Assembly (NCBI GenBank): GCA_026417035.1
Contig: JAOAEA010000011.1
Span: 7,902-71,901 of the forward strand
Reading direction: 5' to 3'
Origin: Burkholderiales bacterium
Lineage (GTDB): Bacteria; Pseudomonadota; Gammaproteobacteria; Burkholderiales; SG8-39
Length of the DNA stretch: 64,000 nt
Both the position numbers and the translations under genes were made by a program. Position 1 is the stretch's first letter. Every line of letters begins with the position of its first letter. The notes under the pieces were generated by a model, which did not search any database, was not told the DNA's origin, and saw only the letters and a list, made by a program, of their open reading frames with translations. Of the stretch, positions 1 through 15,270 are shown piece after piece.

Positions 1-1
1 G

Positions 2-691
2 GGCTGCGGCGCGAACCCCACGGTCGGCAACGCGTTCGACAAGCTGCACGCGCAGGGCCTCACGCTGTGCTTCGGCGAGACGACCGAGCTCACCGGCGGC
101 GAGCACCTCGTCGCCGCCCGCTGCCGCACGCCGGAAATCCGCGAGCGGTTCATGTTCATGTTCAACCGCTACCAGGACGTGGTGAACCGGCACAAGACGA
201 GCGACCTCTCGGAATCCCAGCCGACGAAGGGCAACATCGCCGGCGGCCTCACCACGATCGAGGAGAAGGCGCTCGGCAACATCCAGAAGATCGGCAAGAA
301 GTGCACCGTCGACGGCGTGCTCGACAAGGCCGAGACGCCGACGCATCCCGGCCTCTGGTTCATGGACTCCTCCTCGGCGGCCGCGGAGATGGTCACGCTC
401 TGCGCGGCCTCGGGCTACGTGGTGCACTTCTTCCCGACCGGGCAGGGCAACGTCATCGGTAACCCGATCCTGCCGGTCATCAAGCTCTGCGCCAACCCGA
501 AGACGGTGCGCACCATGGCCGAGCACATCGACGTGGACGTCTCCGGGCTGCTCCGCCGCGAGATGACGCCCGACCAGGCCGGCGACGCGCTGCTCGAATG
601 CATGTTCGCCACCGCGAACGGCCGCTGGACCGCCGCCGAGGTCCTCGGCCACCGCGAGTTCGTGCTGACGCGCCTCTACGAGAGCGCGTGA
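2..691 (+). CDS. UxaA-family dehydratase/lyase, C-terminal part (5' end outside window); altronate/galactarate dehydratase-like or sulfolactate sulfo-lyase SuyB-like
   Basis: Frame 2 is open from the window edge ([36 protein letters not shown]...) and runs into the listed 152..691 ORF. The C-terminal sequence is typical of the UxaA/GarD/SuyB family. High GC3. Confidence 0.8.
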
Positions 692-702
692 CGGAGGGCG
701 CG

Positions 703-1758
703 TCAGGCAGGCGGCGGCCCGGTCGTTCCGCGGACGATCAGCTCGGCTTCGAGCTCGACTTTGTCGGGCACCGTCTCGCCCGCGATCCGCGAGAGCAGGA
801 ACGCGGCCGCGCGTTGTCCCATCTCCGCGGACGGCACGCGCATGGTCGTGAGCGGCGGCGTGAGCTGCGCCGAGAGCTCGAGGTCGTCGAAGCCGGTGAC
901 CGAGAGCGTCCTCGGCACGTCGAGGCCCTGCGCGAGCGCCTCGAACAGGACCCCGAACGCGAGCACGTCGTTGCCACACACGACCGCAGTCGGCCGCGGG
1001 GCGTTGGCGAGGAGAAGCCGCAGCGCCGCCCGGCCTTCGCCGATCCCGTAGGGTCGCTCGACCACGCACGAGGCGGGAAGCTCGATGCCGCGCGCCCCGA
1101 GCGCCTCGCGCACGCCGCGCAACCGCTCGGCGGCGCGATCGTTGCCGCGGGTGATGCCGCTCACGACCCCGAAGCGGCGGTGGCCTAGGTCCGCGAGGTG
1201 GCTGGCGAGGCGCGCCATGGATCGGCGGTTGTCGAAGCCGATGCAGGGGTCCGGACCCGCAGGATCGAAGATCCACGTGCATACGAAGGGCACGCCGCGC
1301 GAACGCAGCAGGCCGACGGTCGCGGCGTCGTGCTCGCCGCCGACGAGCACCAGCCCGTCCACGCCGTGCTCGACCATCGCCCGTACCTGCGCGCTCTCCC
1401 GCGCGCGGTCGTACTCATCGAAGGCGACGAGCAGGCGGTAGCCGGCGGCGTCGAGCGCCGACTGCAGGGACTGGATCGCCTTGGCGAAGATCGCGTTGTC
1501 CACCGTGGGGACTACCGCGCCGATCGTCGCGGAGCGTCGCGACACGAGCGCGCGCGCCGCCCGGTGCGGGACGTAACCGAGCTGGCTCGCCGCGGAGCGC
1601 ACTTTCGCCACGAGCTCGGGACGCACGCGGTCCGGCCGCGAGAGGGCACGCGAGACTGTCGCGACGGAAACGCCGGCGACGCGCGCGACGTCCACGATCG
1701 TCGCGGCACCGCCCGCCCCGGTCCGGAGCCCCTGCAGCAAACGTTTACCGACGGGCAT
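703..1758 (-). CDS. LacI-family transcriptional regulator
   Basis: N-terminal HTH (TIVDVARVAGVSVATVSRALS) followed by a periplasmic-binding-fold sugar-binding core. Start placed at ATG 1758 (MPVGKRLL), because the 34 codons upstream in the ORF are R/G/A-rich and look non-coding. Confidence 0.9.
   Translation of the reverse strand: MPVGKRLLQGLRTGAGGAATIVDVARVAGVSVATVSRALSRPDRVRPELVAKVRSAASQLGYVPHRAARALVSRRSATIGAVVPTVDNAIFAKAIQSLQSALDAAGYRLLVAFDEYDRARESAQVRAMVEHGVDGLVLVGGEHDAATVGLLRSRGVPFVCTWIFDPAGPDPCIGFDNRRSMARLASHLADLGHRRFGVVSGITRGNDRAAERLRGVREALGARGIELPASCVVERPYGIGEGRAALRLLLANAPRPTAVVCGNDVLAFGVLFEALAQGLDVPRTLSVTGFDDLELSAQLTPPLTTMRVPSAEMGQRAAAFLLSRIAGETVPDKVELEAELIVRGTTGPPPA
1737..1748. promoter_or_regulatory. 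Candidate LacI-type operator half-palindrome GCAAACGTTTAC
   Basis: AAACGTTT core palindrome typical of LacI/PurR/CcpA-type operators. It overlaps the start region of the LacI gene. A second near-identical copy lies at 1880..1891. Confidence 0.4.
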
Positions 1759-1879
1759 CGTGCGATGTTTGCATGGCTTCGCGCCGCCGCGCAAGGATCC
1801 CCTCTCTGTTGCGGCGCCGCATCGCGGCCGGTGTCCCGGCGCTTGACAGCGCGGGCGCACTTCGCTAGCCTGCCGGCAA

Positions 1880-1891
1880 GAAAACGTTTAC
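1880..1891. promoter_or_regulatory. Candidate LacI-type operator GAAAACGTTTAC
   Basis: Shares AAACGTTTAC with the site at 1737..1748. Lies in the divergent intergenic region upstream of the TRAP operon. Confidence 0.4.
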
Positions 1892-1973
1892 ATCCCTGCC
1901 GGCGCGAGCGACCCTCACAGCCGGAAAAGGGGGGCCGGCGCAGGCCGGCTCTGCAAGGAGGAGGAGTCGTCGC

Positions 1974-2240
1974 TTGTCGAGGCCGTCGTCCGCCGTCGCA
2001 GAAGCCGGTTCCCGCGCGGCCGCGCGCCGAAACTACCGGATCGCCGCCGCCGCGCTCGCCGTGTACGCCGTCGACGTGCTCGTCGGCAAGGCGGGCGTGG
2101 TGCTCAGGTTCGTGCCCCCATTCCGCCTCGGCGAGGTCGGCGAGTTCCTCGTCGTGCTCGTAGCCGTGGTGTTCTTCGTCGCCGGGCTCCTCGTCGAGCC
2201 CCCGTCCCGCCCTTCCGCCGCCACTCAGGAGGAGTCATGA
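1974..2240 (+). CDS. Small hypothetical membrane protein (88 aa, two hydrophobic segments)
   Basis: TTG start 7 nt after a strong RBS (AGGAGGAGGAG, 1955..1965). Very high GC3. The stop overlaps the dctP-like ATG (ATGA at 2237..2240). Hydrophobic stretches IAAAALAVYAVDVLV and FLVVLVAVVFFVAGLLV. Confidence 0.55.
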   Translation: MSRPSSAVAEAGSRAAARRNYRIAAAALAVYAVDVLVGKAGVVLRFVPPFRLGEVGEFLVVLVAVVFFVAGLLVEPPSRPSAATQEES

Positions 2241-3382
2241 ATCAGCCCGTCCAGTCTCCCGATCGCCGCCGGTTCCTCGAGATCGCCAGCCGCTACGGCT
2301 TCGGCACCGCCGTCCTGGCCGCAACCGCCGGCCTGCTCTGGGACAACCGGGCGATCGCGCAGACCGCCGCCGACGAAGCGGCGAAGCAGAAGGCCGCGAA
2401 GACGACGATGATCTTCGCCACCGAGTACAAGATCGAGGACTACGTCCGCTATCCCGTCATGCAGGCGCGGTTCAAGGAGAACGTCGAGGCGGCGACCAAG
2501 GGCCAGATCTACGTGAAGCTCCACCCGGCCGGCCAGCTCGGCATCGGCGCGGCGCTCGCGCAGAAGATCCAGGCGGGAACGGTCCAGGGTGGCGCGGTGT
2601 CGCTTTCGAATTTCTCGCCGTTCGCGCCGGCCGTGGACCTCATCAACATCCCCTACTGGTGCGGCGAGAACCAGAAGTTCGCGAACCTCGTCACCTCGCG
2701 CGCGTGGGACAAGGAGATCACGCCGAAGGTCGTCGCGCGGGGCTACAAGCCGATGTTCTACTTCACCGTCGACCCGCGCACGGTCTCGGTCCGCAAGGGA
2801 TTCGGCAAGGTGATCCGCACGCCCGCGGACATGCAGGGCATGAAGATGCGCGTCCCGCCGTCGCAGCTCCTGCAGCAGTTCTACCGGCTCGCGGGCGCCA
2901 ACCCGACCGTCGTGCCCTGGGGCGAGACCGCCACCGCGATCAAGCAGGGGGTCGCCGACGGGCTCGACCCGGCGGTGTCGGCGCTCGCCACGTTCGGCTT
3001 CTCGGACATCCTCGAGACGGTGAGCACGGTGCGGTCGGTGCCCGACGCGCAGATGTTCGCCGCGAACGCGAACTGGTACAACCAGCTTCCCGTCGAGCTG
3101 AAGGCGGCGTTCGAGCTCGCCTCGGAAAAGACCCAGGTCGAGACCTTTGCGCAGATCGAGAAGGCGCGCGCCGTCTCGATGGAGCAGATGCGCAAGGGCG
3201 GTGCGAAGTTCTACAACCCGACGCCGGCCGAGTTCCGCCAGTGGGTCGAGCAGTGTGGCGAGTCGCGGCCGGAGTGGAACGAGTTCAAGATCAAGCTCGC
3301 CGGCTCGATCGACAACTTCGACCGGCTCAAGGAAGCGGCGAACACCAAGGGGCCGATCACGGTCGGCGACTTCGCCGGCTGA
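2237..3382 (+). CDS. TRAP transporter substrate-binding protein (DctP family)
   Basis: Tat-like signal (SPDRRRFLEIASRYGFGTAVLAATAG), DctP-type fold sequence, AGGAGGAG RBS, followed by the DctQ and DctM genes. Confidence 0.9.
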   Translation: MNQPVQSPDRRRFLEIASRYGFGTAVLAATAGLLWDNRAIAQTAADEAAKQKAAKTTMIFATEYKIEDYVRYPVMQARFKENVEAATKGQIYVKLHPAGQLGIGAALAQKIQAGTVQGGAVSLSNFSPFAPAVDLINIPYWCGENQKFANLVTSRAWDKEITPKVVARGYKPMFYFTVDPRTVSVRKGFGKVIRTPADMQGMKMRVPPSQLLQQFYRLAGANPTVVPWGETATAIKQGVADGLDPAVSALATFGFSDILETVSTVRSVPDAQMFAANANWYNQLPVELKAAFELASEKTQVETFAQIEKARAVSMEQMRKGGAKFYNPTPAEFRQWVEQCGESRPEWNEFKIKLAGSIDNFDRLKEAANTKGPITVGDFAG

Positions 3383-3470
3383 GCCCGCCGGCGCCCCTGC
3401 GCCCGAGGCCCGGCGCGACGCCGGGCCGCCGGGATCCCGCGGCCCGGCCGCGCGCGATGGCCCCCGACCG

Positions 3471-3995
3471 ATGACGCCCAAGCGCCTCTACGAACTGCTC
3501 GACGCGAACGCCGAGCGTTACCTGATGCTCGTGTTCTACTGCTTCGTCGTGTTCGTGATCGTCCAGGAGGTGGTGCGCCGGTTCGTGCTCAATTACTCGT
3601 CCGCGTGGGGCGAAGAGGCGGCGCGCTACGGCTTCATCTACCTCGGCTGGATCGGCGCGGCCTACGCGGTGAAGGAGCGCGCCCACATCCGCTTCGACAT
3701 CCTGCTCAACCGGCTGCCGCAGCGGCTGCACGGGTGGGTCTACGTGTTCGCCGACCTCGCGACGCTCGTGTTCGCGTGCATCGCCATCTACTGGTCGCTG
3801 CATACCATCGAGAACCTGGTGAAGTTCGACGCCGCCACACCGGTTCTGCGCGTCAACAAGGCGTGGTTCGAGGCGGCCGTCCCGATAGGCTTCGGCCTCA
3901 TGATCTGGCGGCTGCTGCAGTCGCTCGCACGCGACCTGCGCGACCTGCGCGCCGGGCGTCCCGTCTTCACCGGCAAGGCCATGTTCGAGGAATAG
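3471..3995 (+). CDS. TRAP transporter small permease (DctQ family)
   Basis: About 174 aa with four hydrophobic segments (MTPKRLYELLDANAERYLMLVFYCFVVFVIV...). Start set at ATG 3471, because the upstream part of ORF 3147..3995 is R/S-rich and overlaps dctP. Confidence 0.85.
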   Translation: MTPKRLYELLDANAERYLMLVFYCFVVFVIVQEVVRRFVLNYSSAWGEEAARYGFIYLGWIGAAYAVKERAHIRFDILLNRLPQRLHGWVYVFADLATLVFACIAIYWSLHTIENLVKFDAATPVLRVNKAWFEAAVPIGFGLMIWRLLQSLARDLRDLRAGRPVFTGKAMFEE

Positions 3996-4010
3996 CGGGA
4001 GCCGGGTGCT

Positions 4011-5279
4011 GTGGCCATCGCGCTCTCGATCCTCTTCACGGTCGTCCTGCTCGTCATCGGCGTCCCGTTCTGGGTGTCGCTCGGCCTCGGCACGGTCGCG
4101 ATCCTCGCGTCGACCGGCGCCTTGCCGCTCACGCTGATCGGCGAAGCGCTCTTCGAGGGAGTGGACTCCTTCGCCCTCATCGCCATTCCGCTCTTCGTCC
4201 TCACCGGGGACGTGATGGTGCGCAGCGGGCTCGCCTACCGCCTGCTCGACTTCGCCGAAGCGACCTTCGGCTCGCTCCGCTCCGGATTCGGCACGTCCAC
4301 CGTGATGGGCTGCGGGCTGTTCGCCTGCATTTCCGGCTCGGATGCCGCCGACGCGGCGGCGATCGGGCGCATCACCATGGCCCGGCTGCAGGAGAAGGGC
4401 TACCCGCGGGCGTACGCGTGCGCGCTGGTCGCCTCGGGCGCGTGCACCGGGATCCTGATCCCGCCGTCGATCGCCTACATCATCCTCGGCCTGGTGCTCG
4501 GCATCTCGTCGGCGACGCTCTTTCTCGCCGCGTTCGTTCCCGGCGTACTGGTCCTGCTGGCGGTGATCGTCACCAACGTCCTGGTGAACCGCGCGCGCGG
4601 CTACGAGCGCTCGACCGATGCGTTCTCGTTCGCGCGCTGGCTGCGCGCGCTCAACGACGCCAAGTGGGCGCTCTCCATCCCGGTCATCATCCTCGGCGGC
4701 ATCTACTCGGGCATCTTCACGCCCACCGAATCGGCCGCGGTCGCGGTCGCCGTCGCGATCGTCATCGGCATGGTGCAGCGCCGCCTCACGCTCGCGCAGT
4801 TCCCGGCGATGCTCGGCACGAGCGCGCGCGTGTGCGGCGTCGTGCTGCCGATCATCGCGGTGGCGCTGCTCTTCTCGCAGGCGCTGACCGTCGTCAACGT
4901 GCCGCAGGACTTCGTCGCGTGGGTGCTCTCGTTCGGAACGGGGCCTGGCGCGGTCGTGTTCCTGATGCTGGTCATCCTGGTGGTCGCGGGGATGTTCATG
5001 GAGACCGGGCCCAACATCGTGGTGCTCGGGCCACTGCTCTTCCCGCTCGCGCGCGAGATCGGCATGGACCCGGTGCATTTCTGCGTATTCATGATCACGA
5101 CGCTCGGGCTCGGCTTCATCACCCCGCCCTTCGGGCTCAACCTCTTCGTGATGGCGGGGCTCACGCGCACGCCGATCACCGCGATCGCGCGGCACGCGTT
5201 CCCGTTCGTGATCGCGCTCCTCATCGTGTCCGCGATCATCGGCTACGTGCCGGCGATCTCGACGTTCATGCTCAAGTGA
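4011..5279 (+). CDS. TRAP transporter large permease (DctM family)
   Basis: 422-aa polytopic membrane protein typical of DctM. Follows DctQ after a 15-bp gap. Confidence 0.92.
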   Translation: MAIALSILFTVVLLVIGVPFWVSLGLGTVAILASTGALPLTLIGEALFEGVDSFALIAIPLFVLTGDVMVRSGLAYRLLDFAEATFGSLRSGFGTSTVMGCGLFACISGSDAADAAAIGRITMARLQEKGYPRAYACALVASGACTGILIPPSIAYIILGLVLGISSATLFLAAFVPGVLVLLAVIVTNVLVNRARGYERSTDAFSFARWLRALNDAKWALSIPVIILGGIYSGIFTPTESAAVAVAVAIVIGMVQRRLTLAQFPAMLGTSARVCGVVLPIIAVALLFSQALTVVNVPQDFVAWVLSFGTGPGAVVFLMLVILVVAGMFMETGPNIVVLGPLLFPLAREIGMDPVHFCVFMITTLGLGFITPPFGLNLFVMAGLTRTPITAIARHAFPFVIALLIVSAIIGYVPAISTFMLK

Positions 5280-5295
5280 CCGGGCGGGTGGCGCG

Positions 5296-6261
5296 GTGAG
5301 GGCTGCCGTTTTCCATGGCGACCGGCGCATCTCGATCGCCGACGTTCCGCCGCCCGAGGCAGCGTGCGGGGAGGTGGTGCTGCGCGTCGCGCGCACCGCG
5401 CTGTGCGGGAGCGACGCGAAGCTCTGGCTGCGGGGTGCCGAACACACGCCGGGCCACGAGATCTTCGGCGTCGTCGACCGGCCGGGTCACGCGCTCCACG
5501 GCCGGCGTTCGCTCGTCTACATTCCCGTGCACTGCGGCCGGTGCGCCTCCTGTGCCGCGGGCGACACGCACCTTTGTCTTGCCGAGTCGACGCTCGTCGG
5601 CTGGAACCGGCCCGGCGGCTACGCCGAGCGCCTCTCGGTCCCGGCGCAGTGCCTGCTACCGGTGCCCGACGACGTTCCCGACGATCTCGCGCCGCTGCTC
5701 CTCGACACCATCGGCACTTCGGCGCACGGCATCCGCATGGCGCGGCCGCTCGTGCCGGCGGGCGACGTGCTGGTTACCGGTGCCGGGCCGATCGGGCTGG
5801 GCGCGATCATCGCGCTTCGCCACTTCGGCTACGAGCGGGTGTGGGTTTCCGATCCGCGCGAGAGCCGGGTCCGGTTCGCCACCGAGCTCGGCGCGACGCC
5901 GCATCCGGTCGGCGAGCTGTCGCGACGCTTCAAGCTCGTCGTGGAATCGAGCGGCTCGCACGCGGCGCGCAACCAGGGGCTCGAGGTCGTGCTGCCGAAG
6001 GGCGTCGTGCTGCTGCTGGGGGAGAACGACGCACCCTGGACGATCGAGGAGAAGAAGCCGATCCGGCGCAAGGACTTCTGGATGCTGCGCTCGTTCTATT
6101 TCCCCAAGGGGGACTTCGCGGACAACGTCGAGCTGTTGCGCCGCTACCGCGACGAGTACGCGCGGCTGGTGGACGCGAAGTTCGGCATCGACGCGTTCCC
6201 CGAGGCCTTCGCGCGATTCGCAGCGGGGCAGCTCGTGAAGCCGCTGCTCGCATTCGATTGA
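5296..6261 (+). CDS. Zn-dependent alcohol/polyol dehydrogenase (MDR family)
   Basis: GHEIFGVV catalytic-zinc motif, structural zinc cysteines (CGRCASCAAGDTHLC), GxGxxG (VTGAGPIGLG). Confidence 0.85.
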   Translation: MRAAVFHGDRRISIADVPPPEAACGEVVLRVARTALCGSDAKLWLRGAEHTPGHEIFGVVDRPGHALHGRRSLVYIPVHCGRCASCAAGDTHLCLAESTLVGWNRPGGYAERLSVPAQCLLPVPDDVPDDLAPLLLDTIGTSAHGIRMARPLVPAGDVLVTGAGPIGLGAIIALRHFGYERVWVSDPRESRVRFATELGATPHPVGELSRRFKLVVESSGSHAARNQGLEVVLPKGVVLLLGENDAPWTIEEKKPIRRKDFWMLRSFYFPKGDFADNVELLRRYRDEYARLVDAKFGIDAFPEAFARFAAGQLVKPLLAFD

Positions 6262-6275
6262 GGTCCCGCCCCCGC

Positions 6276-7187
6276 ATGCCCGCCCGGGTCGTCTGCGTCG
6301 GACACAGCGCGCTCGATCGCGTGTTCACGCTCGACGCATGGCCGCCGCCGGGCACGAGTGCGAAGGTGCCGGCCACGAGCTACGCCGAGTCGGGCGGGGG
6401 GATGGCGGCGAACGCGGCAGTCGCGGTGGCGCGCCTCGGCGGGGCGGCGGCCTTCGTCGGGCCGGTCGGCGACGACGCCGTGGCCGAGGTGATGCGCGCG
6501 GAGCTCGAGCGCTGCGGCGTCGACGCGAGCGGCATGCGGCGCATGCCGGCCCGGCGCTCGTCCACCTCGGTGATCCTCGTCGATGCACGCGGAGAGCGGC
6601 TCATCGTCAACTATCGCGGCGACGCCGTGGCGAGCGGCGCGGAGTGGCTGCCGCTCGACCGGATCGGTGGTGCCGCGGCGGTGCTCGTCGATGTCCGCTG
6701 GGTGGCCGGCGCAGAGGCGGCCTTGCGGCACGCTCGCGCCGCGGGCGTCCCGACCGTGCTCGACGCCGACGTCGCGCCGGCGCGGACACTCGCGGCGCTG
6801 GTTCCCCTCGCCGAGCACGCGATCTTCTCGGAGCCGGGCCTCGCGGCGTTCGCGGCCGGCCGCAGCGACGCGGAAGCGCTCCGCGCCGCGCTCGCCGCGG
6901 GCGCCCGGGTGGCCGGCGTGACGCGCGGGGCCGCGGGGTTCGAATGGATCGGCAGCGGCACGCCGCAGGTGCAGCACGTTCCCGCGCCGGTCGTGCGGGC
7001 GGTCGACACGACCGGCGCCGGTGACGTCTTCCACGGCGCATACGCGCTGGCGATCGCGGAGGGGCGCAGCGTCGGTGACGCGGCGCTCTTCGCCTGCGTC
7101 GCGGCTGCGCTCAAGTGCGAGCATCCCGGCGCCCGCTCGGTTCCGACACGGGCGCAGGTCGAGGCGCTCGCGGATCGCGCGGCATGA
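6276..7187 (+). CDS. PfkB-family carbohydrate kinase
   Basis: MPARVVCVGHSALDRVF... N-terminus and the C-terminal TTGAGDVFHGAYA anion-hole motif of ribokinase/PfkB kinases. Only the last 303 codons of ORF 5364..7187 are used. Confidence 0.88.
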   Translation: MPARVVCVGHSALDRVFTLDAWPPPGTSAKVPATSYAESGGGMAANAAVAVARLGGAAAFVGPVGDDAVAEVMRAELERCGVDASGMRRMPARRSSTSVILVDARGERLIVNYRGDAVASGAEWLPLDRIGGAAAVLVDVRWVAGAEAALRHARAAGVPTVLDADVAPARTLAALVPLAEHAIFSEPGLAAFAAGRSDAEALRAALAAGARVAGVTRGAAGFEWIGSGTPQVQHVPAPVVRAVDTTGAGDVFHGAYALAIAEGRSVGDAALFACVAAALKCEHPGARSVPTRAQVEALADRAA

Positions 7188-8239
7188 GCGGCAGCGTGCT
7201 TACGCCCGGGAAGGCGTGGGGCCTGCGGCGGCTCGCCGACGCTGCCGGCAACTTCATGATGCTCGCGGTGGACCAGCGGCCGCCGATCGCCGAGCTCGTG
7301 GCGCGAGGCCGGGGCGTCCCGGCGGTTGCGGCGGGCTTCGCGGACATCGCCGCGGTCAAGCGCTGCCTCGCCGAGGCGCTCGCGCCGCATGCGACCGCGA
7401 CGCTCGTCGACCCCAACTTCGCTTACCCGGCGGCGATCGCAGCCGTCCCCGCGTCGCGGGGCCTCCTGCTGACGCTCGAGGAGCATCGCTTCGAGGAGAC
7501 GCCGCACGGGCGCAAGTCGTCCTCCATCCCGGGCTGGAGCGTCGCGAAGATCCGGCGCCTCGGCGCCGACGCGGTCAAGGTGCTCGCGTGGTACCGGCCC
7601 GACGCGTCCGAGGCGGCCAAGGCGCACCAGCGCGCCTATGTCGCCGCCGTCGGCGAGGAATGCCGGCGCCACGACATCGCGTTCGTCTTCGAGCTGCTCG
7701 TCTATCCGTTTCCCGGCGAGCGCGGGCACACGAGCGCCTATCTCGAGGACGGCGCCAAGCGTCCGGAAGCCGTGCTTGCGAGCGTCGCGGAGTTCGCGGA
7801 CCCGCGCTACGGGGTCGATCTCTTCAAGATCGAGAGCCCGATCCCGGCGCCGCGCCTGCCCGATCCGCGCAGCCGGGCGGCAGTGCCGGCGCAGGCGTGG
7901 TTCGACCGGATCGCCGCAACGCTCGCCGCGCGCGACTGCCCGTGGGTGATGCTTTCCGCGGGCGCGGGGAAGGCCGAGTTCGAGCGGGTGCTGACGTACG
8001 CATACCGTGCCGGGGCGAACGGCTATCTCGCCGGCCGCGCGATCTGGTGGGAGGCGCTGCGCGCTTTCCCCGACCTCGCCGCGTGCCGCGCGCGCCTCGC
8101 GGCCGAGGCGGTGCCGTACATGCGGCGGCTCAACCGGTTGACGTCGCGGCGGGCGCGGCCGTGGCACGCCGACGCGCGCTTCGACGTCACGCGCGAGGGC
8201 GATTTCGCCCGCGGCTATCCCGACTGTGCCGCGGCGTGA
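7184..8239 (+). CDS. Class I aldolase of the LacD (tagatose-1,6-bisphosphate aldolase) / YihT family
   Basis: Block-wise similarity to LacD: MLAVDQR, AVKVLAWYRPD, QRAYVAAVGEECRRHDIAFVFELLVY, VDLFKIESP, WVMLSAGAGKAEF, LAGRAIW. The ATG overlaps the kinase stop (ATGA at 7184..7187). Confidence 0.85.
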   Translation: MSGSVLTPGKAWGLRRLADAAGNFMMLAVDQRPPIAELVARGRGVPAVAAGFADIAAVKRCLAEALAPHATATLVDPNFAYPAAIAAVPASRGLLLTLEEHRFEETPHGRKSSSIPGWSVAKIRRLGADAVKVLAWYRPDASEAAKAHQRAYVAAVGEECRRHDIAFVFELLVYPFPGERGHTSAYLEDGAKRPEAVLASVAEFADPRYGVDLFKIESPIPAPRLPDPRSRAAVPAQAWFDRIAATLAARDCPWVMLSAGAGKAEFERVLTYAYRAGANGYLAGRAIWWEALRAFPDLAACRARLAAEAVPYMRRLNRLTSRRARPWHADARFDVTREGDFARGYPDCAAA

Positions 8240-8300
8240 GGGGGCGGCCCGGCAGTTCCGACCCGAGGCGCGGCCGCCCCGCCGCGCCGCGGGCCTTTGA

Positions 8301-9629
<1,329 letters not shown>

Positions 9630-9642
9630 CCGGGAACGCGCG

Positions 9643-10410
9643 ATGGACGTCCGCGGGCTCTTCGATCTCTCGGGTCGCGCCGCCCTGGTGACGGGCGGCA
9701 ACTCGGGCATCGGCGAAGCGATGGCGCGCGCGCTCGGCCAGGCCGGCGCGCGCGTCTGCCTCGTCGCGCGCCGCGAGCCCGAGCTCGAACGCGCCGCAGC
9801 CGCGCTCGCCCAAGACGGGATCGCCGCGAGCTACGTGCCCTGCGACCTCGCCGATCCGCGGGCGATCGCCCGCTGCGCCGAGCTCGCGCGGACGCTCGTC
9901 GGGCACGTCGACATCGTCGTCAACGCGGCTGGCGTGAACCTGCGCGAGCCGTTCATGCAGGTCACGCCGGAGAGCTGGGGCCGCCAGATCGCCGTCCACC
10001 TCACAGCGCCGTTCTTCCTGGTGCAGGCGCTCGCGCCACGGATGCGCGAGCGCGGGTGGGGCCGGATCATCAACCTCGCGTCGCTGCAGTCGCAGCGGGC
10101 GTTCCCGAACAGCGCGCCCTACGGTGCGGCCAAGGGCGGCATCGTTCAGCTCACCCGCGCGTTCGCCGAGGAATGGTCGCGGCACGGGATCACCGCCAAC
10201 GCGATCGCCCCCGGGTTCTTCCCGACGGCGCTCACCGCGCCGGTGTTCGCGGAACCGGCCAGGGCCGCGGCGAACGCGGCGCAGACGGCGATCGGCCGCA
10301 ACGGCGAGCTCGAGGACCTCTACGGGGTCACCGTTTTCCTCGCGAGCGACGCGTCGGCGTACATCACCGGGCAGACGATCTACGTTGACGGCGGCTTCAC
10401 CGCCAAATGA
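9643..10410 (+). CDS. Short-chain dehydrogenase/reductase (SDR)
   Basis: [10 protein letters not shown] cofactor motif and the YGAAK catalytic motif. 255 aa. Confidence 0.9.
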
Positions 10411-10423
10411 CACGGGGAGCGAG

Positions 10424-11419
10424 ATGAAAGCGCTGGTCTACACGGCACCGAACGAGGTCACGTACCGTGACGAGCCCGAGCCCGTCCGCGGCGAGGGCGA
10501 GGCCGTCCTGCGGATCGACGCCGTCGGGATCTGCGGCTCGGACATGCATGCCTTCCACGGCCGCGACCCGCGGCGCGTGCCGCCGCTCATCCTCGGCCAC
10601 GAGTTCTGCGGCACGATCGTCGCCGGACCGGGCCAGGGCAAGCGCGTCACCGGCAACCCGCTCATCACTTGCGGCACTTGCGAGTATTGCGTGCAGGGGC
10701 GCAACAACCTCTGCGCCAACCGCACCATGGTGGGCATGACGCGCGCCGGGGCGTTCGCCGAGCGGATGTCCATCCCGGCGACGAGCCTGGTCGAAATGCC
10801 GCAGGACATGGATCCGGTCAAGGCCGCGCTGACCGAGCCGGCGGCGACGGCGCTGCACGCCCTGGACCTCGCGACGCGTGCGGCGCGGCGCCCCCTGCCG
10901 GAGCTTGCGCTCTACGTCATCGGCGGCGGCGCCATCGGCCTGCTCACGGCGCTCCTCGCGCGGAGCTACGGATGCCGCCGGATCGTGCTCGCGGAGACCA
11001 ATCCGCTGCGGCGCGCTTCCGCAGAGCGCGCGGCAGGCTGCAGGGTGCTCGATCCGCTCGCCGGCGAGGCTCCGGCGGATGGTTCGATCGACCTCGTGAT
11101 CGACGCGGTCGGTGGCGGCGCGACGCGCAAGGCCGCGCTCGCCGCCGTGAAGCCGGGCGGCGTCGTGCTCCACGTCGGCCTGCAGGACTGGGCGAGCGAG
11201 ATCGACATGCGCAAGCTGACGCTCGCGGAGGTGACTCTGATCGGCACGTACACCTACTCCACGGCCGACCTGCGCGCGACGGTGAAGGCGCTCGCCGAGG
11301 GCGCCTTCGGCGATCTCGCCTGGGTGGAGACCCGGCCACTCGCCGACGGCGCACGGGCGTTCGACGACCTCGACAAGGGACGCTCGGCCGCGGCGAAGAT
11401 CGTGCTGACCCCGGCTTGA
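10424..11419 (+). CDS. Zn-dependent alcohol dehydrogenase (sorbitol/threonine dehydrogenase-like MDR)
   Basis: MKALVYTAPNEV..., CGSDMHAF, GHEFCGTIV, CGTCEYCVQGRNNLC, GGGAIGLL. Start at ATG 10424 within ORF 10124..11419. Confidence 0.88.
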   Translation: MKALVYTAPNEVTYRDEPEPVRGEGEAVLRIDAVGICGSDMHAFHGRDPRRVPPLILGHEFCGTIVAGPGQGKRVTGNPLITCGTCEYCVQGRNNLCANRTMVGMTRAGAFAERMSIPATSLVEMPQDMDPVKAALTEPAATALHALDLATRAARRPLPELALYVIGGGAIGLLTALLARSYGCRRIVLAETNPLRRASAERAAGCRVLDPLAGEAPADGSIDLVIDAVGGGATRKAALAAVKPGGVVLHVGLQDWASEIDMRKLTLAEVTLIGTYTYSTADLRATVKALAEGAFGDLAWVETRPLADGARAFDDLDKGRSAAAKIVLTPA

Positions 11420-11501: not shown

Positions 11502-12083
11502 ATGAGGACGACTTTCGCTGCGCTCGCCGTGATCGCGGCGCTTTCCGCCGGTGCCGCCGGCGCCGCCGTCGTCTCGGGCGTCAAGGTGGACGACAAGGCG
11601 CAGGTCGCCGCCGGCGGGCCCGAGCTCGTGCTGAACGGCGCGGGCGTGCGCACCCGGCTCATGTTCGACGTCTACGTCGCCGCCCTCTACCTCCCGGAGA
11701 AGAAGACGAACGCGGCGGACGTGCTCGCGGCTGCCGGCCCGAAGCGGGTCGCGATGACGATGATGCGCGACGTGGGCGCCGATCAGCTCGCCGAGAGCCT
11801 GAACGAGGGCATCCGGCTCAACACCCCGCCGGAAGAGCTCGCGAAGATGAAGGCGCAGCTCGACGAGCTGATGGCGACGATGAAGGCGGTCGGCACCGCG
11901 AGGAAGGGCGACCTGATCGCGCTCGACTTCGTGCCGGAAGCCGGGACGCGCGTCTCGGTGAACGGCAAGGAGACGGGCAAGCCGATCGCGGGCGCCGATT
12001 TCTACCGCGCGCTGCTCAGGATCTGGCTCGGCGAGAAGCCGGTGCAGGACAACCTGAAGAAGGCTTTGCTCGGCGGCGGCTGA
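11502..12083 (+). CDS. Chalcone isomerase-like family protein, secreted
   Basis: Signal peptide (MRTTFAALAVIAALSAGAAGAA). LVLNGAGVRTRLMFDVYVAALYL and FYRALLRIWLG are typical of the bacterial CHI-like family. Confidence 0.75.
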   Translation: MRTTFAALAVIAALSAGAAGAAVVSGVKVDDKAQVAAGGPELVLNGAGVRTRLMFDVYVAALYLPEKKTNAADVLAAAGPKRVAMTMMRDVGADQLAESLNEGIRLNTPPEELAKMKAQLDELMATMKAVGTARKGDLIALDFVPEAGTRVSVNGKETGKPIAGADFYRALLRIWLGEKPVQDNLKKALLGGG

Positions 12084-12259
12084 GGCCGGGGCGCGAGGAT
12101 TCGGGATCCAGGCGGAGCGGCGGGATGCGCGGCGACCCGAGGCGCGTCGGCAACGCGCAGCGCCGCCTCCGCGAGCGCCCGTCCGCGCCCTGAATCGTCC
12201 AGCCCGACGCACGTATCCCCGACCCCGAATGCCGATTCCCGTTCCGTGATTCCCGAGCC

Positions 12260-12673
12260 ATGCATCCGTTCCATCTCGCCTTCCCCGTGACCAGCCTCGC
12301 CAAGGCGCGCGCCTTCTACGGCGGCCTGCTCGGGTGTCCCGAAGGGCGATCCTCGGACGACTGGGTGGACTTCGACTTCTACGGGCACCAGATCGTCGCC
12401 CACCTCGCGCCCGAGGAGGCGGGGCATCGCAAGACGAGCGCCGTGGACGGCGACCAGGTCCCGGTGCGCCACTTCGGCGTCGTGCTGCCGATGGACGAGT
12501 GGGAGCGGCTCGCGGCGAGGCTCCGGGCGGCCGGCGTCGAGTTCATCATCGAGCCGCACGTCCGCTTCAAGGGCGAGGTGGGCGAGCAGGCGACGATGTT
12601 CTTCCTCGATCCGTGCGGCAACGCCCTTGAGTTCAAGGCGTTCAAGGACATCGGCCGGCTCTTCGCGAAGTAG
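12260..12673 (+). CDS. VOC (glyoxalase/bleomycin-resistance/dioxygenase) family protein
   Basis: [26 protein letters not shown]... and the C-terminal [13 protein letters not shown] are typical of VOC-fold proteins. Confidence 0.8.
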
Positions 12674-12828
12674 CGCGGGCGCCCGGCGGGAGTTCGCCGG
12701 CTGGCTATAATCGCTGCGCTCGCGGCGGCGAGCGGTCCGGGGGGGCGATGCTCCGGGCCGGGAGAAAGGGTGCCGGCCAAGGCCCTGCGTCGTCTCGCCG
12801 CGGCTTCACCAACACCGGAGGAGCATCG

Positions 12829-13785
12829 ATGAAACGGACGCTGTTTTCGCTCGCGCTCGCCGCGGGCGTCGCGCTGGCCGGGCCCGCGGCCGCGCAGAAC
12901 ATCTCGATCGGCACGGGCGGCACCGGCGGGGTGTATTACCCGATGGGCGGGGGCCTCGCGAACATCCTGTCGAGGTACGTGAGCGGGATGCAGGCGACCG
13001 CCGAGGTGACCGGTGGCTCGGTGGACAACCTCAAGCTCCTCGGGAGCGGTAAGGCCGACGTCGGCTTCTCCATGGCGGACGCCGGCTGGGACGCCTACAA
13101 GGGCCAGGACAAGTTCACGGGCGCTCCCGTGCCGGTGCGCACGCTGGCCGTGCTCTACCCGAACCGCATGCACGTCGTGACCGTGGAGGGCACCGGCATC
13201 AACACCATGGCCGACCTCAAGGGCAAGCGGGTCTCCACCGGCTCGCCGGGCAGCGCGACGGAGGTGATGGCGTTCCGGCTGATCGAGGCCGCCGGGCTCG
13301 ACCGGGAGAAGGACCTCAAGCGCGAGCGCCTCGGCGTCGCGGAGAGCGTGAACGCGCTCAAGGACAAGAAGATCGACGCGTTCTTCTGGGTCGGCGGAAT
13401 CCCGACGGCGGCGGTCACCGACCTCGCCGCGACGCCGGGCGTGAAGATCAAGCTGATCGATCACGCCGAGTTCGTCGACGCCATGAACAAGAAGTCCGGC
13501 CCGCTCTACGTGAAGGACGTCATCCCGGCGAAGTCCTACGCGGGGCAGGACGCGCCCAACCAGATCGCGAGCGTCTGGAACATCCTCGTGGCCTCCGAGA
13601 AGATGTCCGACCAGACCGCCTACAACATCGTGAAGACGCTGTTCGAGAAGAAGCCCGAGCTCATCGCCGTCCACAAGGAGGCGCAGAACATCGACTTCAA
13701 GTATCAGAACAACAGCGCGTCGCCGGTCCCCTACCACCCCGGGGCGATCAGGTACTTCAAGGAGCAGGGCATCGAGCTGCGGTGA
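12829..13785 (+). CDS. TAXI-family TRAP transporter solute receptor
   Basis: Signal peptide then IGTGGTGGVYYPMGGGLA, the TAXI hallmark. RBS GGAGGAG. Start at ATG 12829 within ORF 12748..13785. Confidence 0.9.
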   Translation: MKRTLFSLALAAGVALAGPAAAQNISIGTGGTGGVYYPMGGGLANILSRYVSGMQATAEVTGGSVDNLKLLGSGKADVGFSMADAGWDAYKGQDKFTGAPVPVRTLAVLYPNRMHVVTVEGTGINTMADLKGKRVSTGSPGSATEVMAFRLIEAAGLDREKDLKRERLGVAESVNALKDKKIDAFFWVGGIPTAAVTDLAATPGVKIKLIDHAEFVDAMNKKSGPLYVKDVIPAKSYAGQDAPNQIASVWNILVASEKMSDQTAYNIVKTLFEKKPELIAVHKEAQNIDFKYQNNSASPVPYHPGAIRYFKEQGIELR

Positions 13786-13878
13786 CCCCGCCGCCGCGAG
13801 GCGGCCACGCCATCGCGGCGGTTCGGTCGCGGTGCGGTCGTCGCGAGCCGGCCGCGAGGGGGCGGCCGGCGTGGCGTT

Positions 13879-15084
13879 TCAGCCTCCCGGCTCCGCGCTC
13901 ACGCCCTTCGCCATGAGGGCGTCGATCTCCGCCTCCGAGTAGCCGGCCTCGCGCAGGACCGCGCGGGAGTCCTCGCCCAGGCGCGGCGCAGGCCTGCCGG
14001 GCTCGGGCTGCGAGTCCGACCACGAGGTCGGCACCGCCATGCGGCGGATGCGGCCTTCGGTCGGGTGGTCCTCCCAGCGGAAGAACCCGACGGCCTCGAG
14101 GTGCGGATGCGCGAGCAGGTCCCCGACGCTGTTCATCGGCGCGGCGGGGATGTCGGCCGCCTCGAAGAGGGCGAGCCACTCCGCGGTGGTGCGCGTCGCC
14201 ATCACTTGCGCGACGTACGCGTACACCTCGGCGATGTGCGCCGCGCGGTTCGAGTGGGTCGCGAAGCGGGCATCGCGTTCCATCCTCTCCGGCTCGCCGA
14301 TCGCCGCGAAGAAGCTCTTCCACTGCTTGTCGTTGTAGATCAGCACGCAGACATGCCCGTCCTTCGTGGCGTACGGCCGCCGGTGCTCGGCGAGCAGCCG
14401 CGCGTAGCCGGGCGTGCCGAGCGGCGGATCGAAGGTCTCGCCGCCCAAGTGGTCACCCAGCACGAACTGCACCACGGCCTCGAACATCGGCACCTCGACC
14501 GACTGGCCGCGGCCGGTGCGCTCCCGATGAAAGAGCGCGGCGCACACCGCGTAGACGACGTGCAGCCCGGTGAGCCGGTCGGCGAGCGTCACCGGCGCGT
14601 AACGCGGCGTGGGGTTGCCTTGGGCGCGGAACAGGGCCGGAATCCCGCCTGCGCCCTGGATGAGGTCGTCGTACGCGGGCTTGGCGGCGTAGGGGCCGCG
14701 CTGCCCATAGCCGTATGCGCCGACGTAGACGATCCGCTCGTTGGCGGCGCGCACCTCGTCGTAGGAGAGCCCGAGCCGGGCCATCGCCTGCGGCCGGACG
14801 TTGTAGACGAGGACATCGGCGCCGGCGGCGAGGCGCAGCAGCGCGGCGCGGCCCTCGGGCGCCTTCAGGTCGAGCACGATGCTCCGCTTGCCCCGCCCGG
14901 CGTGCAGGTAGATGTGACCCATGCCCGGGTTCCGGAACGGGCCCACGTGGCGCATGTTGTCGCCCTCGCGCGTCTCGACCTTGATCACGTCGGCGCCGAG
15001 GTCGGCGAGGATCTGGGTGGCGAACGGGCCCATGACCACGGTGGTCATGTCGATGACGCGCACGCCTGCGAGGGGGCCGGGCAA
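13879..15084 (-). CDS. Family III CoA-transferase (CaiB/BaiF)
   Basis: PLAGVRVIDMTTVVMGPFATQILADLGADVIKVE N-terminus. Proposed TTG start at 15084, preceded by GGAG. The remaining 800 upstream codons of ORF 13879..17529 are antisense to the TRAP permease and R/E/D-rich. Confidence 0.85.
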   Translation of the reverse strand: MPGPLAGVRVIDMTTVVMGPFATQILADLGADVIKVETREGDNMRHVGPFRNPGMGHIYLHAGRGKRSIVLDLKAPEGRAALLRLAAGADVLVYNVRPQAMARLGLSYDEVRAANERIVYVGAYGYGQRGPYAAKPAYDDLIQGAGGIPALFRAQGNPTPRYAPVTLADRLTGLHVVYAVCAALFHRERTGRGQSVEVPMFEAVVQFVLGDHLGGETFDPPLGTPGYARLLAEHRRPYATKDGHVCVLIYNDKQWKSFFAAIGEPERMERDARFATHSNRAAHIAEVYAYVAQVMATRTTAEWLALFEAADIPAAPMNSVGDLLAHPHLEAVGFFRWEDHPTEGRIRRMAVPTSWSDSQPEPGRPAPRLGEDSRAVLREAGYSEAEIDALMAKGVSAEPGG

Positions 15085-15270
15085 GGAGGTCTCCGCAAAA
15101 AGAGCGTTCGCGCAGCGTCCCCACCGAGCACGAGGAGCCCGCCGGCTGCGCCGGGCGGCAAATTCTAGCGGTTCGCGCGGCCGCGGCGCGTCCCGTACAA
15201 TGCCGCCGCCTCGCGCGCGATGGCGAGCGGCGCCGGGCGTCGCCGAGGCACACCACCGGGACCACAACGG

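Follow-up and report, generated by a model that had tools for sequence, protein, structure and literature searches.

A predicted operon for 2,3-dihydroxypropanesulfonate use in a Burkholderiales bacterium carries a kinase-aldolase module that may belong to a variant of sulfoglycolysis

2,3-Dihydroxypropanesulfonate (DHPS), a sulfonate of algae and plants, and the sulfo-sugar sulfoquinovose belong to the most abundant organosulfur compounds, and their turnover contributes a large term to the sulfur cycle. In the picture that has become familiar, the labor is divided between two tiers, with one organism splitting the sulfo-sugar and excreting DHPS or sulfolactate, and another then releasing the sulfur. 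Here we describe a gene cluster of a Burkholderiales bacterium that very probably serves DHPS use under the control of a LacI-type regulator, and that carries within the same operon three genes, for a zinc-dependent alcohol dehydrogenase (Zn-ADH1), a PfkB-family kinase, and a LacD-like aldolase (together “the module”), which we believe, with moderate confidence, to act on a sulfonated ketose. The window, by which we mean the whole 64,000-nucleotide stretch analyzed, comprises positions 7902-71901 of contig C22 (C22:7902-71901) in an assembly of 3.77 Mb, 249 contigs, and 89.6% completeness; the 7.9 kb upstream of it were added in order to resolve the gene that is cut by its edge.

A well-described relative of this locus is found in Cupriavidus pinatubonensis, namely the hpsRNOUP-suyAB cluster (PMC11382572, citing Mayer et al., 2010), which we reached by a tblastn search of plasmids and which has the order hpsR-hpsN-hpsO-MFS-hpsP-suyA-suyB, MFS denoting a carrier of the major facilitator superfamily. 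Counterparts of its LacI regulator, HpsN, HpsO, HpsP, SuyA, and SuyB are all found in the window locus, at 49-81% identity, and the chemistry proposed is the same. The window locus differs in taking up its substrate by a tripartite ATP-independent periplasmic (TRAP) transporter, HpsKLM, rather than by the MFS carrier HpsU; in its suyAB genes, which form a unit apart, located upstream on the same strand and provided with a divergent GntR regulator of their own; and in the three extra genes (Zn-ADH1, kinase, and aldolase) that its operon carries.

The hpsKLM-hpsNOP loci of Ruegeria pomeroyi and other Roseobacteraceae, as described in PMC13335735 and PMC11131964, resemble the window locus in their TRAP-mediated DHPS uptake, in the substrate contacts of HpsK, and in their HpsN, HpsO, and HpsP. 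R. pomeroyi, however, takes sulfolactate on by way of SlcD and CuyA (PMC11382572), whereas the window locus has SuyAB adjoining the operon, and the host here, unlike the Roseobacteraceae, is a betaproteobacterium of 70% G+C. The portions of PMC13335735 and PMC11131964 available to us mention neither a kinase nor an aldolase in the Roseobacteraceae hps neighborhoods. For these two genes one must look instead to the sulfoglycolytic Embden-Meyerhof-Parnas (sulfo-EMP) route of E. coli, which consists of YihS, YihV, YihT, and YihU (PMC8006165). With it the window shares a YihV-orthologous kinase bearing the sulfonate-binding triad and a class I aldolase of the YihT superfamily. It departs from the E. 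coli system in that the isomerase YihS, the sulfoquinovosidase YihQ, the mutarotase YihR, and the reductase YihU are lacking, the aldolase falls in another LacD-like subfamily, a Zn-dependent dehydrogenase accompanies the kinase-aldolase pair, and the C3 sulfonate is not excreted but, we predict, can be mineralized by enzymes of the same operon. The features of the locus are as follows (window coordinates).

1-691, + strand: suyB, C-terminal 229 residues; Pfam GD_AH_second and GD_AH_C, without a fused N-terminal domain
703-1860 (longest open reading frame, ORF), - strand: LacI-family regulator, HpsR-like; Pfam LacI and Peripla_BP
1879-1892, no strand: candidate LacI-type operator AGAAAACGTTTACA, a palindrome in the divergent promoter region
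1974-2240, + strand: small hydrophobic protein of 88 residues with a TTG start, ahead of hpsK; no Pfam family
2237-3382, + strand: HpsK, predicted DHPS-binding TRAP subunit (DctP); match to PDB 24GC (RpHpsK)
3471-3995, + strand: HpsL, small TRAP membrane subunit (DctQ); Pfam DctQ, start revised within ORF 3147-3995
4011-5279, + strand: HpsM, large TRAP membrane subunit (DctM); Pfam DctM at 334 bits, TIGR00786 above cut-off
5296-6261, + strand: Zn-ADH1, medium-chain dehydrogenase and first module gene; Pfam ADH_N and ADH_zinc_N
6276-7187, + strand: YihV-like PfkB kinase, putative 6-deoxy-6-sulfo-ketohexose 1-kinase; match to 7AG6
7184-8239, + strand: class I (Schiff-base) aldolase, DeoC/LacD, LacD-like subfamily NF009498; putative sulfo-ketose-1-phosphate aldolase
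8316-9629, + strand: HpsN, predicted (R)-DHPS 3-dehydrogenase, HisD-like; match to PDB 8V35
9643-10410, + strand: HpsO, predicted short-chain DHPS dehydrogenase (short-chain dehydrogenase/reductase, SDR); Pfam adh_short
10425-11419, + strand: HpsP, predicted Zn-dependent DHPS dehydrogenase (second Zn-ADH); Pfam ADH_N and ADH_zinc_N

Families were called by Pfam and NCBIfam profile searches. At a G+C content of ~70% many of the overlapping ORFs are spurious, and the gene list is that supported by family matches. An earlier note on this DNA, made from the letters alone, had named these gene families, and all of them are indeed present, on the strands and essentially at the places it gave; the ATGA overlaps that it had read at 2237 and 7184 are likewise real, with the remaining intergenic gaps spanning 13-88 bp. 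The start of hpsP was revised from 10124 to 10425 upon inspection of its start codon and ribosome-binding site.

The DHPS part of the locus rests on a series of orthology assignments, beginning with the transporter. HpsK scores 374 bits against the solved DHPS binder RpHpsK (PDB 24GC), as opposed to 73 bits or fewer for other TRAP binding proteins, and in the alignment to 24GC it keeps seven out of seven of the DHPS contacts (Tyr75, Ser125, Asn128, Arg184, Arg207, Asp272, and Gln274) listed for RpHpsK in PMC13335735. HpsM, for its part, is 77-80% identical to the hps-linked DctM proteins of two loci in our comparison set, L013 and L020. The HisD-like gene, for which the earlier note had weighed HpsN against true HisD, aligns without gaps to CpHpsN (PDB 8V35; the chain index in this alignment runs one ahead of the residue number) at 770 bits, while true HisD structures reach at most 238 bits. 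His126, Lys353, Glu318, His319, and Asp352 are all identical in this alignment. Of these, His126 recognizes the sulfonate and separates HpsN from HisD, Lys353 makes a second sulfonate contact, and the remaining three are catalytic (PMC11382572). CpHpsN is R-specific and uses R-sulfolactaldehyde 12-fold better than DHPS (PMC11382572), and the window enzyme, which is 77% identical to the C. pinatubonensis HN-2 copy, is predicted to oxidize R-DHPS or R-sulfolactaldehyde in an NAD-dependent fashion to R-sulfolactate. The earlier note had proposed a check for another hisD in the genome, and a second PF00815 gene, hisD, is found on contig C218, scoring 554 bits on the family model against 437 bits for the window copy; the latter is a paralogue, and not the sole hisD of the cell.

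HpsO, which is syntenic in all hps loci, shares 65% identity with the protein annotated as HpsO in C. pinatubonensis, and HpsP is 58% identical to its counterpart in that organism. HpsP interconverts S-DHPS and sulfolactaldehyde, according to PMC11131964, and the two published models for HpsO and HpsP differ, one invoking racemization via a 2-oxo intermediate and the other direct oxidation at C3. Taken as a whole, these matches make it very probable that the locus is a LacI-controlled operon for DHPS use, at least in its DHPS-sulfolactate part. The passage from DHPS through sulfolactate to pyruvate and sulfite is a known route, to which the window's DHPS part adds a routine new member.

The last step of that route falls to the gene at the window's edge. 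The true extent of suyB is C22 7420-8592, some 390 residues, such that it starts 481 bp before the window, and a suyA, for which the earlier note had proposed to look, lies just upstream of the window as a separate gene of 94 residues (C22 7115-7399), in another frame than suyB. Upstream of suyA there follows a divergent GntR/UTRA regulator (C22 6258-7100, - strand). SuyB and SuyA are 81% and 54% identical, respectively, to the copies in the C. pinatubonensis hpsRNOUP-suyAB cluster, and SuyB is 67-68% identical to Paracoccus homologues. The small ORF was not picked up by the Pfam SAF model in the genome search, and it is assigned to SuyA by its 54% match to the Cupriavidus protein. An ORF of 510 residues, which would give a fused UxaA, proved to be an over-extension, the separate 94-residue suyA lying in another frame. 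The edge gene scores 99.8 bits on the galactarate dehydratase model TIGR03248, for which the cut-off is 730, and 115 bits against solved GarD; with the two genes split and the score far below the cut-off, a UxaA or GarD enzyme, which is a single chain of ~500 residues with a fused N-terminal domain, was ruled out. The placement of the edge gene in the UxaA family thus stands as to family, yet the protein is not a full-length UxaA; its sequence identifies it as the predicted large subunit of a split SuyAB, an (R)-sulfolactate sulfo-lyase, SuyAB being named R-sulfolactate lyase in PMC11131964. Genes for sulfite handling, for which the earlier note had suggested a search, are present elsewhere in the genome: there are five of the TauE family, and one of three molybdopterin oxidoreductases is SorA-like.

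Turning to the module, we begin with the kinase. Among solved structures it matches sulfofructose kinase best (7AG6, 222 bits, as compared with 104 bits for ribokinase), and its best match in E. coli is YihV (46% identity, 222 bits), followed by RbsK at 92 bits, whereas the KdgK and IolC models give 41 and 81 bits, respectively. The host genome encodes no paralogue of the kinase that scores above 40 bits, and among the window proteins YihV matches it alone; by these scores the kinase and E. coli YihV are reciprocal best hits, the reverse side having been checked against the window proteins. The triad that holds the sulfonate in YihV is kept as Lys27-Asn109-Arg138, along with Asp13, Ser95, Asp162, and the catalytic Asp244 in GXGD; the triad as well as the sugar and catalytic residues of YihV are described in PMC8006165. 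The next-best solved kinase, 2RBC, lacks the triad Asn.

The aldolase is a more distant relative of its sulfo-EMP counterpart. It fits NCBIfam NF009498 (346 bits, cut-off 184), and its closest solved relative is 8TNF, a “DUF2090 domain-containing protein,” at 379 bits over nearly the full length, against ~128 bits for LacD and 77 bits for YihT. YihT is its sole match in E. coli, at 30-33% identity, and the Schiff-base lysine (Lys193 of YihT) and the equivalent of Arg253 are invariant in the alignment. Among 5.8 billion proteins there is no relative more than 64% identical. We found no paper on 8TNF, and the literature searched contained nothing on DUF2090 in connection with sulfo-compounds either. 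The earlier note had read the locus as a candidate for organosulfonate use, be it DHPS and sulfolactate or a sulfo-sugar. The first half of that reading is borne out by the matches to HpsN, HpsK, HpsO, HpsP, and SuyAB; the second gains from a YihV-like kinase with its triad, but, with an aldolase only 30-33% identical to YihT, it rests on context.

Zn-ADH1, the remaining member of the trio, finds its best solved matches in threonine 3-dehydrogenase (102 bits) and the HpsP structure 8WWD (93 bits), is 28-29% identical to HpsP, and returned generic names only in an Atlas look-up. We compared 21 further loci containing a relative of the aldolase, 19 of which have either a Zn-ADH or an isomerase beside the kinase and aldolase; in 17 the former is a Zn-ADH1 orthologue (51-70% identity). 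Zn-ADH1 and a FucI-like isomerase are mutually exclusive, in that loci with one lack the other. Because it is present where there is no isomerase and absent where an isomerase exists, Zn-ADH1 is favored as the ketose-forming enzyme.

These loci fall into several types. In type A, comprising four Burkholderiales loci of 53-69% G+C (one of which, L019, lies on an incomplete contig beginning within hpsN), a LacI gene is divergent from hpsKLM-hpsN-hpsO-hpsP-ZnADH1-kinase-aldolase. The module thus follows hpsP in type A, while in the window it stands before hpsN, between hpsM and hpsN. Because the module is joined to the hps genes in differing gene orders, its linkage to them, seen in two arrangements and at least five genomes, points to repeated selection for that linkage. 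The converse, hpsNOP clusters without the module, is common, and in this host the module seems to have been added to an hps operon that is older than it, because HpsN is present in six of the 18 same-family genomes (among 30 relatives of the host compared) and the aldolase was found in none; the same-genus contig ends inside hpsN. Adjoining the hps-module operon of one 53%-G+C Burkholderiaceae locus (L020 11183-13471, - strand), which has no suyAB, is a gene for a thiamine-diphosphate enzyme of ~590 residues that could be sulfoacetaldehyde acetyltransferase (Xsc).

Type B takes in 13 loci, drawn from Rhizobiaceae and Variovorax plasmids, Aurantimonadaceae, Piscinibacter, and metagenomes, in which a LacI regulator accompanies Zn-ADH1, the kinase, and the aldolase. 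A sugar-type ATP-binding cassette (ABC) importer is found in 12 of these (all except L026), an SDR in 10, a GabD-like aldehyde dehydrogenase in seven, and an MR/MLE gene and a TauE/TSUP gene in four each. In L042, L043, and L046 the TauE/TSUP gene ends the series of genes on the operon strand; in L044 it is next to the operon but on the other strand. By analogy, an ABC importer, a GabD-like enzyme, TauE/TSUP, and the trio together are the layout of a sulfoglycolysis operon. In the metagenomic locus L035 (19078-21047), tauE lies ~8 kb, and GntR/UTRA, suyA, and suyB 9-10 kb, beyond the module-bearing ABC operon; the layout of regulator and lyase there is the same as upstream of the window. The GabD-like enzyme of these stand-alone clusters scores 761 bits against 8C54, which we take to be a sulfolactaldehyde dehydrogenase, although ordinary succinate-semialdehyde dehydrogenases score nearly as high. 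Where the MR/MLE (enolase-superfamily) gene occurs, it was seen to follow the aldolase or the SDR (L034 11092-12264, L035 11040-12209, and L042 15319-16488), and it may encode a dehydratase or a racemase/epimerase.

In two actinobacterial-type loci (type C; L027 5830-13997 and L033 9090-12567), the kinase and aldolase are joined by a FucI-like isomerase of 466 residues rather than by a Zn-ADH, a combination that may represent a complete sulfo-sugar route with a non-YihS isomerase. L027 adds a PALP enzyme, a 2-hydroxyacid dehydrogenase, an aldehyde dehydrogenase, and Gfo/Idh/MocA oxidoreductases. All told, the module was found in ~20 sampled loci with no YihS isomerase linked to it, and the trio is spread over soil, rhizosphere, and freshwater Alpha- and Betaproteobacteria. 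Its carriers in culture include Shinella sp. HZN7, Sinorhizobium medicae, Fulvimarina manganoxydans, Piscinibacter sakaiensis, and Variovorax paradoxus 2u118. We infer that the trio is a conserved, mobile unit.

From these observations one can sketch how the operon would work. HpsKLM would import DHPS, which HpsO, HpsP, and HpsN would oxidize via sulfolactaldehyde to sulfolactate; SuyAB, under its own GntR regulator, would split (R)-sulfolactate into pyruvate and sulfite, and the sulfite would be exported or oxidized by the products of genes elsewhere in the genome. The module would constitute the lower half of the sulfo-EMP route without the YihS isomerase. Zn-ADH1 would make a 6-deoxy-6-sulfo-ketohexose (sulfofructose, for example) from a reduced precursor or polyol, the kinase would phosphorylate C1 of this ketohexose, and the aldolase would release dihydroxyacetone phosphate (DHAP) and sulfolactaldehyde, the latter entering the Hps and Suy enzymes of the same operon. 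All six carbons would in that case go to a single organism, which would also set the sulfur free. The kinase and aldolase are read in this manner because sulfolactaldehyde as a product would justify their linkage to HpsN, SuyAB, GabD, and TauE. A class I aldolase with a conserved lysine requires a ketose phosphate for its substrate, and the direction, set by the kinase, is catabolic.

That the module acts on a sulfonated ketose, most likely a 6-sulfo-ketohexose cleaved to DHAP and sulfolactaldehyde, we consider reasonably probable from gene context and sequence taken together, and the DHPS part and module combined into one explanation deserve the same measured confidence. We are more tentative about the narrower proposal that the trio is an isomerase-free variant of sulfoglycolysis, in which the dehydrogenase replaces YihS, the substrate is perhaps a 6-deoxy-6-sulfo-hexitol, and the C6 sulfonate is mineralized within one cell; this we would call possible rather than probable. 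Other assignments for the kinase and aldolase were dropped. Neither a C3 compound derived from DHPS nor a C4 sulfo-ketose would offer a retro-aldol site, and the synthesis of sulfofructose phosphate by the aldolase in reverse would run counter to the reaction of the kinase.

Several points weigh against a sulfonated ketose as the substrate. There is neither a YihS isomerase (searched for with PF07221 and the E. coli YihS protein) nor a GH31 sulfoquinovosidase (PF01055) in the 89.6%-complete genome. The PF07221 search missed the E. coli control genome even though YihS is there, whereas the YihS protein query found it and is the better test; by that query, with E. coli as the positive control, YihS is absent from seven of the eight other module-bearing genomes. 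The sole homologue, in Fulvimarina, lies 230 kb from the module within a TRAP, MR/MLE, and SDR acid-sugar cluster and belongs to that unrelated cluster. Nor does the operon contain a transporter that would bring in a C6 compound: HpsK looks specific for DHPS, and a search of the genome for homologues of the ABC binding protein encoded in the stand-alone clusters found none. A downstream TAXI-TRAP system was considered as the module's importer and rejected, its genes being conserved only within the genus. The literature searched contained no sulfonated hexitol, and nothing useful on rhizobial tagatose loci or in 2026 reviews. With regard to the aldolase, its conserved residues are general LacD-family features that give no sign of sulfonate specificity, and overall similarity (30-33%) puts it outside the YihT subfamily and closer to another LacD-like subfamily. 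DUF2090, moreover, we take to be the aldolase half of IolC fusions, which cleave the carboxylate-bearing 2-deoxy-5-keto-gluconate 6-phosphate in inositol catabolism. Lastly, three module loci (L022, L026, and L028) have no sulfonate gene nearby.

Stereochemistry poses a further difficulty. Sulfoglycolysis of D-sulfoquinovose yields S-sulfolactaldehyde. Such a product does not fit neatly with the enzymes downstream, and an extra step would be needed, because the S-enantiomer is to be expected while HpsN is R-specific and SuyAB is an R-sulfolactate lyase. It could be supplied by HpsP or Zn-ADH1 with a subsequent inversion, or by a GabD encoded elsewhere. GabD-2, according to PMC11131964, oxidizes both enantiomers of sulfolactaldehyde, and a GabD homologue 58% identical to that of the Fulvimarina module cluster is encoded on another contig of the host.

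A different role for Zn-ADH1 would ease this last difficulty. The module could be sulfoglycolytic with Zn-ADH1 as an analogue of YihU or HpsP, converting S-sulfolactaldehyde to S-DHPS, and with the source of the sulfo-ketose, be it import or isomerization, encoded elsewhere. The S/R mismatch with HpsN would then be solved if DHPS can be inverted; HpsP, which is known to interconvert S-DHPS and sulfolactaldehyde (PMC11131964), gives Zn-ADH1 a structural match (8WWD, 93 bits) close to its best one (102 bits); and a kinase, an aldolase, and a reductase would make a natural trio, YihV, YihT, and YihU being the known sulfo-EMP core. A reductase in this position would, however, duplicate the HpsP of its own operon and, in the rhizobial operons, the GabD-like enzyme, and Zn-ADH1 is just 28-29% identical to HpsP. 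The origin of the ketose would be left unexplained in genomes without YihS, and the two isomerase-bearing loci lack a Zn-ADH. We regard this explanation as somewhat unlikely.

It is also conceivable, if unlikely, that the trio has nothing to do with sulfonates and degrades an acid sugar or a neutral polyol, its placement among the hps genes reflecting shared regulation or chance insertion. An aldonate or deoxy-aldonate would be oxidized to a 5-keto acid, phosphorylated, and cleaved to DHAP and tartronate or malonate semialdehyde, or else a hexitol would be degraded via a ketose 1-phosphate. The DUF2090 label on 8TNF, the best solved match of the aldolase, would suit such a route, given the IolC connection that we presume for it, and the weak NCBIfam matches of the kinase do include the bifunctional kinase/aldolase of the inositol (IolC) pathway; yet the kinase scores 222 bits against YihV as opposed to 81 on the IolC model, and its sulfonate triad is intact. 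Polyol binders, too, are the nearest matches to the ABC binding protein of the stand-alone clusters (5IAI and 4RYA, of which the latter binds sorbitol; 70-89 bits, with SmoF at 57 bits among solved structures), GabD-type and MR/MLE enzymes are typical of acid-sugar routes, no YihS or YihQ is linked to the module, and several module loci are without a sulfonate gene. Set against this, TauE/TSUP lies in or beside the operon in L042, L043, L044, and L046, suyAB and tauE stand within 10 kb of the module in L035, and the module has been fused to hps operons in two arrangements and at least five genomes.

As for an ordinary hexuronate, galactarate, or galactitol pathway, built from UxaA/GarD, a KdgK-like kinase, a LacD aldolase, and a spare HisD, it has in its favor only family-level names (UxaA, PfkB, “tagatose 1,6-diphosphate aldolase,” and histidinol dehydrogenase), and it is excluded on scores as highly improbable, given a split SuyAB whose SuyB is 81% identical to a known one and far below the GarD cut-off, a kinase with 41 bits on the KdgK model versus 222 to YihV, and HpsN, HpsK, HpsO, and HpsP that are all orthologues of DHPS proteins.

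The LacI regulator is 49% identical to the LacI protein of the C. pinatubonensis hps cluster and 43-55% identical to the regulators of all related loci; its true start is probably near 1715, because the helix-turn-helix begins only at residue 54 of the longest ORF. Among loci L011-L046 the candidate operators at the corresponding place sort by cluster type, with TGTAAnCGnTTACA ahead of the module-carrying operons of types A and B, and TGAAAGCGCTTTCA ahead of the hpsNOP-only clusters, including that of C. pinatubonensis. The window's AGAAAACGTTTACA is a hybrid of TGTAAnCGnTTACA and TGAAAGCGCTTTCA, and the role of these palindromes as operators we infer from position and form. A scan for promoters and terminators returned nothing beyond chance expectation.

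The small ORF ahead of hpsK (1974-2240) is probably a real gene, because it has a strong Shine-Dalgarno sequence, in addition to its ATGA overlap with hpsK, and a 45%-identical counterpart at the same position in the Rubrivivax locus L013 (1473-1721). The small hydrophobic proteins (82-88 residues) ahead of hpsK in these two distant hps operons share the motif LGEVGEFLxVLxAV, and the protein may be an accessory subunit of the HpsKLM TRAP system. Downstream of hpsP (11502-17388) lie genes for a chalcone-isomerase-like protein, a glyoxalase-family protein, a TAXI-type binding protein, a CoA-transferase (- strand), and a fused TAXI-TRAP permease. Synteny with a same-genus genome (L052 4039-6269, 76-90% identity) covers the first three of these genes, which the hps loci of other genera lack. 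On the other side, upstream of the window on contig C22 (L003 1900-6200), a stretch of ~4 kb between a glutathione S-transferase (GST) gene and the GntR gene of suyAB contains several long ORFs on both strands with no Pfam match.

The earlier note could name no characterized pathway that unites a LacD-type aldolase with a HisD-type dehydrogenase, and in the literature that we searched, too, no published pathway joins such an aldolase with HpsN. The module is without description there, and is best called a new variant of sulfoglycolysis. If it is indeed sulfoglycolytic, gene-marker surveys that require an isomerase, a kinase, and an aldolase together (PMC13372026) would miss its carriers. If the proposal is true, the module points to a substrate that nobody has looked for, and an operon that joins a sulfoglycolysis-like kinase and aldolase to the enzymes of DHPS and sulfolactate would put both tiers of sulfo-sugar degradation in one cell.

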